Shown here one piece after another: positions 5,256 to 44,127 of a stretch of 54,238 nucleotides of DNA. Below the pieces are notes generated by a model, which did no database searches, had not been told where the DNA came from, and saw only the letters and a program-made list of their open reading frames with translations. The position numbers were made by a program, and so were the translations under genes. Source of the DNA: a virus (lineage: Duplodnaviria > Heunggongvirae > Uroviricota > Caudoviricetes); the IMG/VR virus record IMGVR_UViG_2541047842_000005; one strand, given 5' to 3'. Position 1 is the first letter of the stretch. Each line of letters begins with the position of its first letter.

Positions 5256-6179
5256 TCATTGGCAGCAAACAAGCCCTTTATATGCTTCTTCTACCATGTC
5301 GAATACTTCCGGCCTGTAATAGAAAAACTCATTACTGCCATCAAATTTTACAGGAAAGTTAATTTTATAATTGCTGAAATATTTATGCATCATGCTTTCT
5401 AATTCATGGATATTTTCGGTTGGACCTTCTAACGTTTTCACGACACATAAATCAGGGATTCTAACGCCTGATTTATGTGCGCTTTTTAATACCCGATTTC
5501 TTCGCTTGTTCTCATTAACGCTTACGCCGATTTTCATTTGTGTAGGCACTTCAGGATCATCAACCATGATGTAAAGTTTGCCGAAATTGTGTGACAAAAA
5601 ACCGTGTTTCGCACATTTCGGGCAGCCTTGCCCGCTTTTAATAGCATAAGGTCTAGGCGACCACTTATGATCACAAACCTTGCATCGACATAATACTTTT
5701 GTCCTATCGTTTATTATTTCTCCCAATACTTCAATATCATGATTTACCTTAGTGATAGCGGATAAATGTTCTTCGTGTGATAATGTTCGTCTTTGTGCGA
5801 TTTTTAAACCTTTACATTTCGGGCAGCCGCGCCCGTTTTTTAGGTTGTTAGGTTTAGCCGACCATTCGTGATTACAAACTTTGCAGCGGCATAATGCTTT
5901 TGTATCGCCGTTTATTATTTCGCCAATCACTTCGACATCAGAATTAACCTTCTCGATAGCGGCAACCTGTTCTTCGTGTGATAATTTCATCTTTCCGGCG
6001 CATTTCGGGCAGCCGTAACCGCTTTTAAGATTGTAAGGTCTAGCCGACCATTCGTGACTGCAAACCTTGCAGCGGCAGGATACTTTTGTCCTGTTATTGA
6101 CAATTTCCCCCAGCACTTCGACATCATGATTAACCTTAGCGATAGCCGCAACCTGTTCATCATGTGTTAACTTGCGCAT
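5256..6179 (-). CDS. triple zinc-ribbon repeat protein with C-terminal T5orf172/GIY-YIG-like domain
   Basis: 307 aa; three tandem ~56-aa repeats HxEQVAAIxKVNxDVEVxGEIxNxxTKxxCRCKVCxHEWSAxPxNLKxGxGCPKC; C-terminus GKLYIMVDD..KIGVSVNENKRRNR..H..EFFYY fits the T5orf172 pattern; strong SD AAGGAG. Confidence 0.55.
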   Translation of the reverse strand: MRKLTHDEQVAAIAKVNHDVEVLGEIVNNRTKVSCRCKVCSHEWSARPYNLKSGYGCPKCAGKMKLSHEEQVAAIEKVNSDVEVIGEIINGDTKALCRCKVCNHEWSAKPNNLKNGRGCPKCKGLKIAQRRTLSHEEHLSAITKVNHDIEVLGEIINDRTKVLCRCKVCDHKWSPRPYAIKSGQGCPKCAKHGFLSHNFGKLYIMVDDPEVPTQMKIGVSVNENKRRNRVLKSAHKSGVRIPDLCVVKTLEGPTENIHELESMMHKYFSNYKINFPVKFDGSNEFFYYRPEVFDMVEEAYKGLVCCQ

Positions 6180-6320
6180 CGTTCCAACTCCTTAAAACGC
6201 CTCAGACGCGCTACAACGCAAAAATCCCACCGCGACACCCGTTTGCACAGGTTGCAGTGTCTTATTGCGTCAGAGGCGCTATCAGGTGTCTAATTTTTGA
6301 TTTACAGACTGGTAGGTAGG

Positions 6321-6422
6321 TTATGGATTTACTAGAAGGAACAAACCGCCAAACAAAACGACGTTAACAGCTATTGCCGCAGCTATGGCGAAAGCCAGGG
6401 CGAAAACGTGTTTACTATCCAT
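6321..6422 (-). CDS. micro-ORF, hydrophobic peptide (33 aa)
   Basis: MDSKHVFALAFAIAAAIAVNVVLFGGLFLLVNP; SD AGAGAGG 7 nt upstream of ATG at 6422; one predicted TM helix; not in the ORF track. Confidence 0.3.
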   Translation of the reverse strand: MDSKHVFALAFAIAAAIAVNVVLFGGLFLLVNP

Positions 6423-6555
6423 TTTAAAATCCTCTCTGTAACGCTCTCTAACGAGCTAATCGCAAAAAGGTAAGCAAGTGTAGCACCACATGCGATTTAG
6501 CTCGCTGGTGAGGTTGTTTTGTGGGTAATTTTGGATTTTTGCGGATCGTGGTTGG

Positions 6556-7602
6556 TCAAAGAGCGCCAGCGCGCGTATCACGTAGCGTTTTTGGTTTAAG
6601 CAGGAAATCAAGTGTCGCAGTGAAGCCATTGCCGAAGTAAAAATCTGAAGCCGTGTTTTTGAACGTTTCGAAGTAGGCGACAAAGCCGTTAATGCTTTTG
6701 TCTTTCAGGTAGTCAGTGAACGCATAGATCTTGCGTTCAAGATCCCGATCCAGTTCGGCAGGTGGTAACAGGCCGTCAAACGTGCTGTTAAATGCTTCCA
6801 CCACGTCGGCAGCGCTTACAGTAGCTGATAGCTTGCGCCATTGCTCAGCGTCAGCCAGATACCCATCGAATTTAGTTACCCGGCAAATGTTGATAGGCTT
6901 AGGTGTTCCACCACGGCTGCGCCATTGCGTCAAAGCCCATTCGATTACTAATGTGATCTCATCCTCCGTGTATGCCTTACGTGTTTTTGTTTCTGTCAGT
7001 AGTTCGATAAATGGCTTAGCATCACGACACTTGCATCCAGCTTTGTCGTTGTAGAAGGCCAAGCAACGCAATGCCGCTTCGTTTACGCCATCCTGATTGA
7101 CCGTTTTTTGTCCATTTTCGCTAATACACGAAGTGTATATATCTTTTTCACTTTCTTCTTCTACTTCTAATTCATGACCCTTTCCTGACCCGGTCATGAC
7201 CCTATCATGACCTTTTGGTGTTGGATTGATTAACTTCTCTAATTTTAATTGCTCCTTCGCTGTGTTTATAGCAGCCCTATAAGCACTCTTAGAAGTCATT
7301 GATTGGTCCAGCCTTTTTAATAACTTTAGGCAAGTTATGTGGCCTTGAGAACATTCGAACAAACCAATTTCGATGAAGTATTTCATCATTTCTTCTATAC
7401 GTTTTTCAGTAGATCCGACGTTTCGCGCAATGATTCTCGCGTCATGTCGTAGGTCAAAATTCAGATTGTGCTGATCTACGTCATAAGTTATTAGTTCGAG
7501 GCAATACCAATAAAGCCCGTACCCTTCCAGGCCATAATCTAACAAAACGTTTTGAAGTTTTTCATCGCGGTTCGCATCGCTGTCATGCTTAAACCACTTC
7601 AT
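6556..7602 (-). CDS. phage replication initiation protein (replisome organiser-like)
   Basis: 348 aa; N-terminus MKWFKHDSDANRDEKLQNVLLDYGLEGYGLYWYCLELI resembles the DUF4373-type N-domain of phage replication initiators; upstream of the helicase. Confidence 0.6.
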   Translation of the reverse strand: MKWFKHDSDANRDEKLQNVLLDYGLEGYGLYWYCLELITYDVDQHNLNFDLRHDARIIARNVGSTEKRIEEMMKYFIEIGLFECSQGHITCLKLLKRLDQSMTSKSAYRAAINTAKEQLKLEKLINPTPKGHDRVMTGSGKGHELEVEEESEKDIYTSCISENGQKTVNQDGVNEAALRCLAFYNDKAGCKCRDAKPFIELLTETKTRKAYTEDEITLVIEWALTQWRSRGGTPKPINICRVTKFDGYLADAEQWRKLSATVSAADVVEAFNSTFDGLLPPAELDRDLERKIYAFTDYLKDKSINGFVAYFETFKNTASDFYFGNGFTATLDFLLKPKTLRDTRAGAL

Positions 7603-9637: not shown

Positions 9638-9760
9638 ATGGTTATTCAGGCGCTTCAATTCAAACTGGCAGTAGCGGAAATGCTTCACGATGCCGAAATG
9701 TGGAGCGCCGCGAATAAAGCCTTATACATAGTGTTAACAGCACGGGAGATTAAATGGTGA
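9638..9760 (+). CDS. small hypothetical protein (40 aa)
   Basis: ATG with strong SD GGAGGTG; stop overlaps the erf start; not in the ORF track. Confidence 0.3.
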   Translation: MVIQALQFKLAVAEMLHDAEMWSAANKALYIVLTAREIKW

Positions 9761-11108: not shown

Positions 11109-11333
11109 ATGATTGAAGAAAAAGAAGTAGACAAGGAAATTCCTGACGGTTGTGATGAGCTTATTTGTTTTGACGGCGGCCTGTATGAGTTCGAAACGTC
11201 TGCAGGGTGGCACGATAAATGGCCTAAGCCTACTCGCCAGGAATTAAGCGACCGTAAATCATTCGGCGAAGATGCCGAACGGCTGGCTAATAACAAATGG
11301 CTTGATAAGTTAATTGCGGAGGGTGGCAAATGA
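11109..11333 (+). CDS. hypothetical protein (74 aa)
   Basis: SD GAGGTG upstream; acidic; no motif recognised. Confidence 0.45.
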   Translation: MIEEKEVDKEIPDGCDELICFDGGLYEFETSAGWHDKWPKPTRQELSDRKSFGEDAERLANNKWLDKLIAEGGK

Positions 11334-11443
11334 GCTTTGCAAAAATTGCCGCATTGCTTGCGGCTTTATCTATCGCCGTGCTGTATCTCAGTGTATCTCT
11401 TTATATCACGGTAGCGATCATTAAACTCATTACTAACATGTGA
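11330..11443 (+). CDS. micro-ORF, hydrophobic peptide (37 aa)
   Basis: MSFAKIAALLAALSIAVLYLSVSLYITVAIIKLITNM; ATGA overlap with the upstream stop; single predicted TM helix. Confidence 0.3.
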   Translation: MSFAKIAALLAALSIAVLYLSVSLYITVAIIKLITNM

Positions 11444-11451
11444 GGCCAATC

Positions 11452-11571
11452 ATGAAAGTCGGTAAGGATATTGTGACTGTCGCGTTTTGCATTATTTGCT
11501 TCCTGTTTGTGGTTGTTTCTTGTGGCGCATTTGCTGCGTTGGTTAGCTTTATTTTTAGAGGGTTGCCGTGA
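11452..11571 (+). CDS. micro-ORF, hydrophobic peptide (39 aa)
   Basis: MKVGKDIVTVAFCIICFLFVVVSCGAFAALVSFIFRGLP; SD TGAGG 7 nt upstream. Confidence 0.3.
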   Translation: MKVGKDIVTVAFCIICFLFVVVSCGAFAALVSFIFRGLP

Positions 11572-11843
11572 TGAAAACATGGGATGCAAAGGCTGGTGAT
11601 CTTGTTGTGTTGCCTGAATATCGTGATGACCCTGGCCTGGTTGTACTGAATAAGATATATAACGATCTCGAGCGCCCGCTAGTGGTTAAATACCTGGACG
11701 GAACAATCATAGAACCGCGCTACTTTGATGAGATTGAACTAAAGGCCCACAATGTTCGCGTTAAGCCGTTCCGTGCTTATGTTGAAAACCACTGGCGGAA
11801 ATTGTTCGCCGGACTGAATGGGATGTTTGGCGTATGGCTATAA
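11571..11843 (+). CDS. hypothetical protein (90 aa)
   Basis: ORF track starts at a GTG at 11568; the ATG is at 11571. Confidence 0.45.
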   Translation: MKTWDAKAGDLVVLPEYRDDPGLVVLNKIYNDLERPLVVKYLDGTIIEPRYFDEIELKAHNVRVKPFRAYVENHWRKLFAGLNGMFGVWL

Positions 11844-13080: not shown

Positions 13081-13299
13081 ATGGCCCGCGAATACATGCT
13101 TTATTGCGTTGAGGGTGGCGTAGGCCATGATGCCTACGTCGCCGGGAAAAGCTATCCAGCCGATGAAGTGCTTTCTAATATGCACTTCCGGGAAAATGAA
13201 AGCCAGGTGTCTGTGTGGAAACGGTGCATTGATGGTATTGAGGTTGTAAGCATCGAACGGTATTTAGGTGCGTTTGATTACGGTGTTATTGAGGCTTAA
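13081..13299 (+). CDS. hypothetical protein (72 aa)
   Basis: SD GGAGG upstream of the ATG. Confidence 0.45.
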   Translation: MAREYMLYCVEGGVGHDAYVAGKSYPADEVLSNMHFRENESQVSVWKRCIDGIEVVSIERYLGAFDYGVIEA

Positions 13300-13301
13300 T
13301 T

Positions 13302-13394
13302 ATGGACGACACATTGTTTTATATGTGCTGTTGCTGGGGTTTTATTGCCTTATGCCTGTTTATCAGATGGTTTATTGAATACCATATGAGGTGA
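13302..13394 (+). CDS. micro-ORF, Cys-rich hydrophobic peptide (30 aa)
   Basis: MDDTLFYMCCCWGFIALCLFIRWFIEYHMR; not in the ORF track. Confidence 0.25.
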   Translation: MDDTLFYMCCCWGFIALCLFIRWFIEYHMR

Positions 13395-13397
13395 TAT

Positions 13398-13589
13398 ATG
13401 AAATGCGTTGGAGAATATAAGTTACCGGACAACGCCAAATTAGCTGGTGTCGGTTATTGCGGATGTTATTACTACAACTCAATCGGTGACATTTACCTAA
13501 TCTGCATCATTAAAGGCGTTCAGCATTTTCGCTTGATGCCTTGCACATTAAAAGATCTAAAACAGGCGGTAAAAATGTATGAAGTATAA
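13398..13589 (+). CDS. hypothetical protein (63 aa)
   Basis: SD GAGGTG upstream. Confidence 0.4.
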   Translation: MKCVGEYKLPDNAKLAGVGYCGCYYYNSIGDIYLICIIKGVQHFRLMPCTLKDLKQAVKMYEV

Positions 13590-22701: not shown

Positions 22702-23408
22702 TTGTGCACAGAAAACCCCCAGCTAGGCTGGGGGTTCCGGAAAGCTTTCAGCTTTGAGCCAGTTATTAAAACCCCTTTTGATTTGTTAAAACACCTTGCG
22801 GTCTGGCAACTGCAAGTGTCAAACAAGAAATCAAAAGGGGGTCCCAATGGGGAACGAAAAGAGCTTAGCGCACACCCGATGGAACTGTAAATATCACATA
22901 GTTTTTGCGCCAAAATACCGAAGACAGGTGTTCTACAGAGAGAAGCGTAGAGCAATAGGCAGTATTTTGAGAAAGCTGTGTGAGTGGAAAAGCGTACGGA
23001 TTCTGGAAGCTGAATGCTGTGCAGATCATATCCATATGCTTGTGGAGATCCCGCCTAAAATGAGCGTATCCGGGTTTATGGGATATCTGAAAGGGAAAAG
23101 CAGTCTGATGCTTTACGAGCAGTTTGGTGATTTGAAATTCAAATACAGGAACAGGGAGTTCTGGTGCAGAGGGTACTACGTCGATACAGTGGGTAAGAAC
23201 ACGGCGAAGATACAGGATTACATAAAGCACCAGCTTGAAGAGGATAAAATGGGAGAGCAGTTATCGATTCCCTATCCGGGCAGCCCGTTTACGGGCCGTA
23301 AGTAACGAAGTTGGATGCAAATGTCAGATCGTGTGCGCCTGTTAGGGCGCGGCTGGTAAGAGAGCCTTATAGGCGCATTTGAAAAACCTCCGGCTATGCC
23401 GGAGGATA
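22702..23408 (+). mobile_element. IS200 (IS200/IS605 family) insertion sequence
   Basis: Contains a tnpA colinear with IS200 TnpA; perfect left-end hairpin CCCCCAGC-TAG-GCTGGGGG at 22716-22734, RBS-sequestering inverted repeat at about 22772-22822, right-end hairpin CCTCCGGC-TAT-GCCGGAGG at about 23388-23406; boundaries estimated from the expected ~707 bp length, +/-10 bp. Confidence 0.7.
22847..23305 (+). CDS. tnpA: IS200 transposase TnpA (HUH Y1 transposase)
   Basis: 152 aa from MGNEKSLAHTRWNCKYHIVFAPKYRRQVFY; HxH motif ADHIHMLVEIPP and C-terminal catalytic region RNREFWCRGYYVDTVG match IS200 TnpA; the track ORF 22796-23305 includes an upstream extension. Confidence 0.9.
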   Translation: MGNEKSLAHTRWNCKYHIVFAPKYRRQVFYREKRRAIGSILRKLCEWKSVRILEAECCADHIHMLVEIPPKMSVSGFMGYLKGKSSLMLYEQFGDLKFKYRNREFWCRGYYVDTVGKNTAKIQDYIKHQLEEDKMGEQLSIPYPGSPFTGRK

Positions 23409-43775: not shown

Positions 43776-43810
43776 AAAAAAAACACCCCGCCACGGCGGG
43801 GTTTATAGTG
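43776..43810. terminator. bidirectional terminator (A10 - hairpin - T-rich)
   Basis: AAAAAAAAAA followed by CCCCGCC-ACG-GCGGGG hairpin; gives a U-tract for minus-strand transcripts coming from the moron cluster. Confidence 0.55.
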
Positions 43811-43878
43811 TCGATAGCAGAATGCATGACAATCCAATAATGATAATGATCATTTCCAGAACGTAATGTTCGCACATC

Positions 43879-44127
43879 TCATAACGCCCCCTTCAAATAT
43901 GTCAATCCCTTATCAGTGACGAATGAGTGATTAACCTGGTTTTCATCCGTCATGATGATAAATAACTTTTCCTGTAGGTATTTCGCTTTAGGGTACAGCG
44001 TTAAGCAGACCTGGTACAGTATCCCGCGCTCAATCAGCAAATCAATAAATTCGTGTTCATGATAACCGATGAGGCGGGCGGCCTGTTTCAACGTGTACAC
44101 ATAATCACCGTGATTGCGCCGCCCCAT
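43879..44127 (-). CDS. hypothetical protein (82 aa), possibly HTH
   Basis: YTLKQAARLIGYHEHEFIDLLIERGIL has helix-turn-helix character; moron cluster 2. Confidence 0.4.
   Translation of the reverse strand: MGRRNHGDYVYTLKQAARLIGYHEHEFIDLLIERGILYQVCLTLYPKAKYLQEKLFIIMTDENQVNHSFVTDKGLTYLKGAL

Follow-up and report, generated by a model that had tools for sequence, protein, structure and literature searches.

What is encoded by the four very short open reading frames (ORFs) that lie scattered through the early regions of a temperate coliphage genome? The question arises from IMG/VR virus record IMGVR_UViG_2541047842_000005, a stretch of 54,238 nucleotides (nt) from a virus of the Caudoviricetes that was analyzed at its full length and is referred to hereafter as the window. 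A first-pass annotation, prepared from the sequence itself, had singled out the four ORFs, designated here as orfA, orfB, orfC, and orfD (Table 1), as genes for membrane micro-proteins. On comparative evidence all four are almost certainly real coding genes, and the decisive evidence is the purifying selection that acts on them in the relatives of the phage.

The phage of the window is an mEp021-like temperate coliphage belonging to the mEpimmI group. The region surrounding the four ORFs shows 86-89% identity to mEp021, mEp010, mEp013, mEp044, mEp515, mEp554, and MagusPhagus, and a prophage of E. coli MS 21-1 is 100% identical to the window over the 751 bases compared. Related copies are present in 35 of 5,426 complete E. 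coli genomes. Members of the mEpimmI group have been described as Nus-dependent and non-lambdoid; their N-like antiterminator is gp17, and they also possess a CI-like repressor and three nut sites (PMC11893012). The term lambdoid, which had been applied at first to the relatives of the phage, thus fits them imperfectly, even though their regulation is arranged much as in lambda. The description of the group makes no mention of the four ORFs, and the proteomics reported in it cover virion proteins only (PMC11893012). On the basis of that study and the annotations of relatives, the early operon that contains orfA, orfB, and orfC has gp17 as its first gene and also includes the genes for Erf, Ssb, and Abc2.

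The relatives compared were seven sequenced phages and about 40 IMG/VR contigs, the loci of which were fetched via neighboring genes. All four frames are open, and at the same positions, in each of the seven phages. Among the IMG/VR loci, 40 of 41 have an intact orfA, and all 41 have an intact orfB, which always abuts a gene for a protein of 91 amino acids (aa). The orfC frame is an intact 30-aa ORF in 43 of 44 loci and is truncated to 22 aa in the remaining one. Finally, 42 mEpimmI-type loci contain 37 homologues of orfD with an ATG start and three with a TTG start, whereas two carry another gene in the slot. Homologous micro-ORFs at syntenic positions, for which a search had been proposed, are thus conserved for all four genes across the mEpimmI group. 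Lengths are kept within two to three codons over 22 distinct protein variants of orfA and 28 of orfB.

The pattern of substitution is that of coding DNA. The pooled ratios of nonsynonymous to synonymous polymorphism (pN/pS) are 0.21 for orfA, 0.38 for orfB, 0.14 for orfC, and 0.20 for orfD, and those of the accepted genes on either side of the orfA-orfB pair are 0.20 (74-aa gene) and 0.23 (91-aa gene). Off-frame controls, calculated for orfA and orfB, gave values of 1.46 and 1.89 for the former and 0.87 and 1.41 for the latter. Variable sites are distributed over the three codon positions as 12/10/29, 13/12/26, and, in orfD, 5/4/20, with the excess in the third position. In MagusPhagus the DNA is only ∼71% identical over orfA and orfB, and yet both frames are kept: the indels inside the ORFs are of 6 nt (orfA) and 3 nt, and a 1-nt indel is confined to the spacer between them. 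That same spacer, in the E. coli STEC307 prophage (locus L017, positions 654-1367), has received a KilA-N gene of 714 nt, around which orfA, orfB, and their Shine-Dalgarno (SD) sequences are intact, as expected of independent genes. The first-pass annotation had treated the four as real genes, a view that a loss of frame conservation in relatives would have undone; the opposite was found.

Could the segments nevertheless be non-coding, with orfA serving as a terminator and the others as spacers or RNA elements? Within orfA lies a GC-rich hairpin, GCCGCATTGCTTGCGGC, followed by TTTATCT, which is the predicted terminator "TERM_2" of the mEp021 GenBank record (MH706966), and neither the original mEp021 record nor RefSeq/PGAP annotates orfA, orfB, or orfC, apart from occasional calls of orfB (WP_000868625). 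The U-tail, however, occurs only in the window and the mEp021-like subset and is missing from most variants, whereas the frame and peptide are always kept. In addition, the codon-position substitutions and frame-specific pN/pS values indicate coding, and no Rfam family overlaps any of the four ORFs. The non-coding reading is already contradicted by this conservation pattern and is hardly tenable; the hairpin probably results from consecutive Ala codons. Terminators t1-t5 of mEp021, among them an experimentally demonstrated t2, were reportedly described in 2023 by Valencia-Toxqui et al. The belief that the four ORFs fall below usual annotation cutoffs holds for RefSeq, which omits orfA, orfB, and orfC, but not for the PHANOTATE/pharokka GenBank records of mEp010, MagusPhagus, and others, in which all four are listed as hypothetical proteins.

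The positions, lengths, ATG starts, and SD sequences first assigned to the four ORFs proved correct in every case. Each ATG is preceded, at a distance of 5-9 nt, by a purine-rich SD. The coupling to flanking genes that had been proposed for several of them applies to two. The start of orfA overlaps the stop codon of the 74-aa gene (11109-11333) in the sequence ATGA. The orfB gene begins 8 nt beyond orfA and, in the sequence GTGATG, shares bases of its stop codon with the first codon of the 91-aa gene (11568-11843). The GTG at 11440, an alternative start for orfB, loses the reading frame in the MagusPhagus type through the 1-nt spacer indel. The orfC gene, on the other hand, is separated by 2 nt from the 72-aa gene before it and by 3 nt from the gene after it (13398-13589), the SD of which (GAGGTGA) sits in the last codons of orfC. 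The orfD gene stands alone, 133 nt after a replication gene (6556-7602) and 141 nt before a Zn-finger/T5orf172 gene (5256-6179).

Tight stop/start overlaps of this type are what would be expected if the peptides themselves were irrelevant and translation of the ORFs simply kept ribosomes on the mRNA for coupling or for protection against Rho-dependent polarity. The hydrophobicity would then follow from a T-rich sequence, and AT-rich intergenic DNA is indeed known to yield hydrophobic ORFs easily (PMC11188072). Such an explanation is very improbable. At the amino acid level the ORFs are as constrained as the flanking genes, with many positions that never vary, the lengths have been held over 22-28 variants, orfA and orfB have both survived the insertion of a 714-nt gene between them, and orfD is not coupled to any neighbor.

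Table 1. Positions of the four ORFs and associated features in the window (SD, Shine-Dalgarno sequence; aa, amino acids; nt, nucleotides).
Feature	Positions	Strand	Details
orfA	11330-11443	+	MSFAKIAALLAALSIAVLYLSVSLYITVAIIKLITNM, 37 aa, ATG start
orfB	11452-11571	+	MKVGKDIVTVAFCIICFLFVVVSCGAFAALVSFIFRGLP, 39 aa, ATG start
orfC	13302-13394	+	MDDTLFYMCCCWGFIALCLFIRWFIEYHMR, 30 aa, ATG start
orfD	6321-6422	-	MDSKHVFALAFAIAAAIAVNVVLFGGLFLLVNP, 33 aa, ATG start
SD of orfA, GGAGGG	11318-11323	+	kept in all aligned relatives
SD of orfB, GTGAGG	11440-11445	+	overlaps the orfA stop codon
SD of orfC, TGAGG	13290-13294	+	within the 3' end of the 72-aa gene 13081-13299
SD of orfD, GAGAGGA	6430-6436	-	conserved in relatives
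GC-rich hairpin GCCGCATTGCTTGCGGC, then TTTATCT	11348-11364	+	inside orfA codons 7-12
Structured non-coding block downstream of orfD	6185-6325	-	RNA fold of -48.5 kcal/mol, z = -3.47 versus shuffles
Structured non-coding block upstream of orfD	6415-6560	-	RNA fold of -36.3 kcal/mol, z = -3.63
Motif TGCTACACT (TGnTAnACT)	6477-6485	-	∼55 nt upstream of the orfD ATG

If, as the comparisons indicate, the ORFs encode constrained peptides, what sort of proteins would these be? Hydrophobicity was expressed as dG19, the Hessa free energy (dG) summed over a 19-residue segment, with the scale values of Hessa et al. 2005. The values are -1.37 kcal/mol for orfA, -3.0 kcal/mol for orfB, +0.23 kcal/mol for orfC, and -1.7 kcal/mol for orfD. 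When all six frames of the window were surveyed for ATG-started ORFs of 20-60 aa, 17 of 341 contained a 19-residue segment with a dG below 0.6 kcal/mol, and 11 of these 17 are the four described here plus seven from an array of small ORFs at 27666-28404. The hydrophobic ORFs found here exceed chance expectation.

The orfA product has a short N-terminus (M-x-x-x-K) followed by ∼26 hydrophobic residues (a helix from approximately residue 6 to residue 31), with Lys 5, Ile 6, Ala 7, Leu 9, Tyr 19, Ser 23, Ile 30, Leu 33, and Ile 34 invariant. In orfB the N-terminus, MKVGKD, leads into ∼29 hydrophobic residues, and Phe 12, Phe 17, Phe 19, Gly 25, Ala 28, Ala 29, and Ile 34 are invariant. The orfC peptide begins with an acidic N-terminus (MDD), continues with a hydrophobic segment of ∼17 residues, and ends in an invariant tail, RWFIEYHMR; on the basis of the positive-inside rule this arrangement suggests an N-out, C-in orientation. 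The run of three cysteines first remarked upon in orfC (Cys 9 to Cys 11) is present in the window but is not a conserved motif, being replaced by CIC or CCF in many relatives. The orfD product is an Ala-rich hydrophobic helix with Asn 20 and Gly 25-Gly 26 invariant; 20 of its 33 positions do not vary in the comparison labeled A2. AlphaFold models of orfB and orfD each consist of one continuous helix, extending from residues 3 to 37 with a predicted local distance difference test score (pLDDT) of 88 and from residues 3 to 31 with a pLDDT of 95, respectively. In keeping with the membrane micro-proteins originally proposed, the prediction for every one of the four products is a lone hydrophobic helix, and there is a good probability that all four are inserted into the membrane in that form. 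Such a helix could span the inner membrane and would leave no more than 5-9 residues outside.

Whether the four belong to one family is a separate matter. The first-pass annotation had regarded them as the same kind of gene, which is correct with respect to class but not to ancestry. When the micro-peptides, including those of the array, were compared in pairs, no single family was formed: Smith-Waterman comparisons of the four with each other and with the array peptides, scored against composition shuffles, revealed no significant similarity (best z of 3.5, 78 pairs). From their sequences the four genes thus appear to be members of the same class but independent inventions. None of the peptides has a significant match in Pfam, PHROGs, NCBIfam, or PADLOC, and the PHROG matches of the flanking genes are all of "unknown function." An exhaustive phmmer search with orfA against 1.8 billion cluster representatives returned two clusters, both of 37 aa. 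Word-indexed searches yielded 26 clusters for orfB (using a 43-aa GTG-extended query), all at least 74% identical, and 11 for orfD (using a query padded upstream), all of 33 aa and 88-97% identical. Gene callers had produced orfB proteins of 39-40 aa in 24 of the 26 public clusters. In these cluster searches, orfA, orfB, and orfD had no relatives beyond the mEpimmI phage group, and a contig scan using the neighboring 91-aa protein found nothing.

The orfA, orfB, and orfC genes are nearly universal among the relatives, whereas the array peptides occur individually in 7-39 of 45 loci. The former are thus core-like, and the 27666-28404 array is highly variable. Over loci L183-L229, the interval that contains the array (plus strand), bounded by the 180-aa gene and the gene for the small terminase, varies in length from 11 to 986 nt and contains zero to nine hydrophobic small ORFs. 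Two of the array members, arr5 and arr7, are weakly similar to one another (z of 4.3), which hints at duplication. Another hydrophobic micro-ORF, which had escaped the first-pass annotation, is located at 43803-43877 on the minus strand. It encodes 24 aa, MCEHYVLEMIIIIIGLSCILLSTL, is preceded by an SD, GAAGGGGG, and begins 1 nt past the stop codon of an 82-aa gene (43879-44127, minus strand); only MagusPhagus aligns with this region over its full extent.

How might such helices function? In the proposed mechanism, orfA, orfB, and orfC would be produced early in lytic growth and not in the lysogen, under gp17 antitermination, a timing that their position implies. The orfD gene, which occupies a conserved and structured cassette slot, may have its own promoter. 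The helices would insert into the inner membrane of the host and there pack laterally, helix against helix, with a membrane-protein partner of either host or phage origin. They would thereby act as small transmembrane modulators or inhibitors in host takeover, in the exclusion of other phages, or in counter-defense. Conserved features of a packing type can be identified in each peptide: small-residue ladders of Ala and Ser together with Tyr and Ser in orfA, a G-A-x-A-A sequence in orfB, an Asn and a Gly-Gly pair in orfD, and a charged and aromatic tail in orfC. The modulator model is ranked first because known small membrane proteins mostly work in this manner and because of these packing-type residues. 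Purifying-selected intergenic small ORFs of the Enterobacteriaceae are mostly hydrophobic and potentially transmembrane and are thought to act by protein-protein interactions (PMC11188072), and small membrane proteins that regulate membrane complexes have been reviewed (PMC12648545). Considered by itself, and by analogy with such proteins, the notion that the four peptides bind partners instead of damaging membranes is tentative, falling somewhat short of an even chance. As an explanation of the locus as a whole, four separate coding genes for inner-membrane helices that serve as partner-binding modulators provide the best account, one that is about as apt to be right as wrong.

The foremost competitor is that the peptides perturb membranes directly, self-assembling in the inner membrane so as to lower the proton-motive force or membrane integrity and thereby shutting down host metabolism or timing early events. 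Their action would then resemble that of type I toxins (TisB, Hok, Ibs), of pinholin-like peptides, or of the host peptide YohP. In size, in extreme hydrophobicity, and in the absence of soluble domains the four products match small membrane toxins (PMC12648545), and the 27-aa YohP lowers both membrane potential and fluidity (PMC12719787). According to a work cited in PMC11893012, as it is presented there, overexpression of Ipe, encoded in the same mEp021 operon, leads to cell death and haemolysis. The conserved Gly, Ala, and Asn residues could, moreover, also drive homo-oligomerization. Several observations argue against this view, however. No known type I toxin family (Hok/Gef, Ldr, Ibs, TisB, ShoB, Zor, or DinQ) matches any of the four peptides in Pfam (E<=1) or NCBIfam (E<=0.01). 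Neither strand carries an Rfam family of antisense-antitoxin RNA at the ORFs or in their vicinity, although a novel small RNA would escape Rfam, and no antisense promoter-like site was seen at the ORFs in a promoter scan. Type I toxins possess their own promoter, a long regulated 5' untranslated region (UTR), and an antisense RNA, whereas orfA, orfB, and orfC are embedded in a long operon, translationally chained to their neighbors, and are not transcribed as units of their own behind a regulated 5' UTR. The peptides also lack the amphipathic or charged character of pore formers of the TisB type, and the putative lysis cassette is elsewhere, at ∼25.9-26.8 kb. Direct membrane damage is accordingly rated as rather unlikely, and clearly behind partner-binding modulation.

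Other membrane-associated identities were considered and rejected. The four ORFs are situated in early operons (at 6.3, 11.4, and 13.3 kb) and outside the putative lysis cassette, which does not fit holins, antiholins, or pinholins; the placement of lysis-type genes upstream of the array is inferred from the order of the ORFs. Exclusion lipoproteins (Lpp) have been described for mEpimmI phages, but these are the products of other genes (PMC11893012). A conserved lipobox of the form [LVI][ASTVI][GAS]C behind a signal sequence, as required of such a protein of the Cor/Llp type, is not a feature of the set: orfA and orfD contain no Cys, and in orfB the VVSC of the window is replaced by VVFC or VIAG in relatives. 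Homologues of the 91-aa gene next to orfB bear the PGAP label "toxin-antitoxin system toxin subunit," which finds no support in NCBIfam, Pfam, PADLOC, or Protein Data Bank sequence searches; the label was therefore not used to assign a toxin-antitoxin role to orfA or orfB.

Certain points weigh against the assignment of the four genes as inner-membrane, partner-binding helices. The hydrophobic segment of orfC is short and its dG19 is slightly positive, such that it is a borderline transmembrane segment and may be interfacial instead of spanning. In orfA and orfD the flanking charges are too few for the topology to be predicted. The helical periodicity of conservation, measured as the moment of column entropy, is not significant (p = 0.06, 0.28, 0.10, and 0.84), and with no conserved helix face of significance, the modulator and toxin-like models are not discriminated. 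In one contig (locus L039, IMGVR_UViG_3300045988_060283, ∼960-975) a 1-nt deletion in the A-run of codons 4-5 removes the normal start of orfA, which may reflect faulty assembly or a true disruption of the N-terminus. The three orfD loci with TTG starts carry two substitutions (Ala to Thr and Leu to Gln). On the evidence of these three loci and the two in which the gene is replaced, orfD is dispensable in some lineages.

The surroundings of orfD set it apart from the other three genes. As first proposed, it lies between the replication gene and the Zn-ribbon/T5orf172 gene, and the identities of both were verified: the former encodes a Lin1244_N domain and the latter a treble-clef Zn-finger/T5orf172 protein. 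The blocks on either side of orfD are conserved in sequence among the relatives, and that on the downstream side contains a GC-rich stem plus UUUU at its end, just before the SD of the next gene. The upstream motif is retained as GTGCTA(C/T/G)ACTTGC in most relatives, including loci in which orfD is replaced. It is a candidate extended -10 promoter, although a -35/-10 scan did not detect it. In IMG/VR locus L146 orfD gives way to a gene for an HTH-type (helix-turn-helix) protein of ∼90 aa, and the same is seen in L127, where the gene lies at the end of a contig. Conserved flanks that enclose either orfD or the HTH gene suggest an exchangeable cassette slot, and orfD is possibly an independently transcribed, moron-like unit.

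These features raise the prospect that orfD is either a regulatory leader ORF, whose translation or nascent-chain insertion controls the RNA downstream, or a moron-type cassette. The flanking conserved RNAs fold better than their shuffled counterparts (z of -3.5 and -3.6), the downstream structure terminates in its stem and UUUU immediately before an SD, the TGnTAnACT motif is conserved, and two relatives hold the HTH-type protein in the same slot. Nevertheless, the whole peptide is strongly constrained, as judged from its pN/pS of 0.20 and its 20 invariant positions, and the gene downstream varies among relatives while orfD is constant, which argues against a dedicated leader-gene pair; the leader-peptide assignment is unlikely on these grounds. 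The promoter and terminator, in turn, are candidates read from the sequence. Taken together, a leader or moron role for orfD is improbable in comparison with the reading of its product as an inner-membrane, partner-binding helix.

The protein encoded next to orfD (5256-6179, minus strand) merits description in its own right. It contains three treble-clef/CapR-like repeats and shows a weak PADLOC match to the candidate defense family PDC-S57 (E = 1.3e-4). Related sequence is found in large Escherichia myoviruses (∼136-144 kb) and also in records that are labeled as Campylobacter phages.

The closest known systems are the direct orthologues at the same positions in mEp010, namely mEp010_29, mEp010_30, mEp010_37, and mEp010_14 (WWQ70192, WWQ70193, WWQ70200, and WWQ70177). 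Their counterparts in mEp013, mEp044, mEp515, mEp554, and MagusPhagus and the E. coli protein WP_000868625 are the same genes, with neither a name nor a Pfam or PHROG family. The orfC peptides of mEp010, mEp554, and MagusPhagus are identical to that of the window. Among the phage proteins of superinfection exclusion or lysis control, T4 Imm and Sp, P22 SieA, and HK97 gp15 are located in the inner membrane and act on the membrane machinery of the host. Imm, SieA, and gp15 differ from the four peptides in larger size, several membrane passes, or expression from the prophage, and they share no homology with them. Nearer in size is LysM, a single-gene lysis peptide of leviviruses, in which one helix of 37 aa inhibits the host membrane protein MurJ. 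Small gene families of the same class have reportedly been predicted in phage genomes by Fremin et al. in 2022 (Cell Rep 39:110984, cited in PMC11188072).

Beyond phages, AcrZ, MgtS, MgrB, PmrR, CydX, and KdpF (PMC12648545) resemble the four products in having fewer than 50 aa, only one transmembrane helix, and hardly any soluble part. Proteins of this type act by helix-helix contacts in the cases where their action is known and, like the four described here, have often been missed by annotation. They differ in being chromosomal and stress-regulated, whereas the present genes are phage early genes, and there is no sequence similarity. Hok, TisB, IbsC, LdrD, ShoB, ZorO, and YohP are likewise short, very hydrophobic inner-membrane peptides, some of them prophage-borne. 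In contrast to the type I toxins, orfA, orfB, and orfC have neither their own promoter nor a long 5' UTR, and neither an antisense RNA nor a family match was found. The catalogue of Enterobacteriaceae small ORFs (PMC11188072) contains the same class, that is, conserved phage and prophage small ORFs, many of which are predicted to be transmembrane and lack annotation.

Two additional elements of the window were noted. In the early operon, between the N-like gp17 homologue and erf, the start of which it overlaps, is a 40-aa non-hydrophobic micro-ORF (9638-9760, plus strand); relatives annotate a 123-nt coding sequence at this position (for example, mEp010_24). In the middle region, positions 22714-22837 (plus strand) match the Rfam family of STnc490, a small RNA that binds Hfq, over its full length, with a score of 146 bits versus a gathering score of 56.

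No new mechanism is revealed by the four genes alone, and they are best regarded as lineage-specific members of a well-known class, the small hydrophobic phage proteins. They do provide four compact candidates, of 30-39 aa, for the use of a minimal transmembrane helix early in infection. In practical terms, mEpimmI genomes can be better annotated, and screens for toxicity, exclusion, and counter-defense have a few defined genes to begin with. A bolder proposal, speculative and unlikely as it presently stands, is that the mEpimmI phages possess a "micro-membrane proteome" in which three or four unrelated core early helices of no more than 40 aa and a rapidly changing array of up to nine more, in front of the terminase genes, would each specifically inhibit a different inner-membrane complex of the host or of anti-phage defense, with orfD transcribed independently, expressed from the prophage, and exchangeable with other morons. 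If true, minimal transmembrane helices would constitute a general and evolvable class of phage weapon, comparable to the soluble anti-defense proteins.

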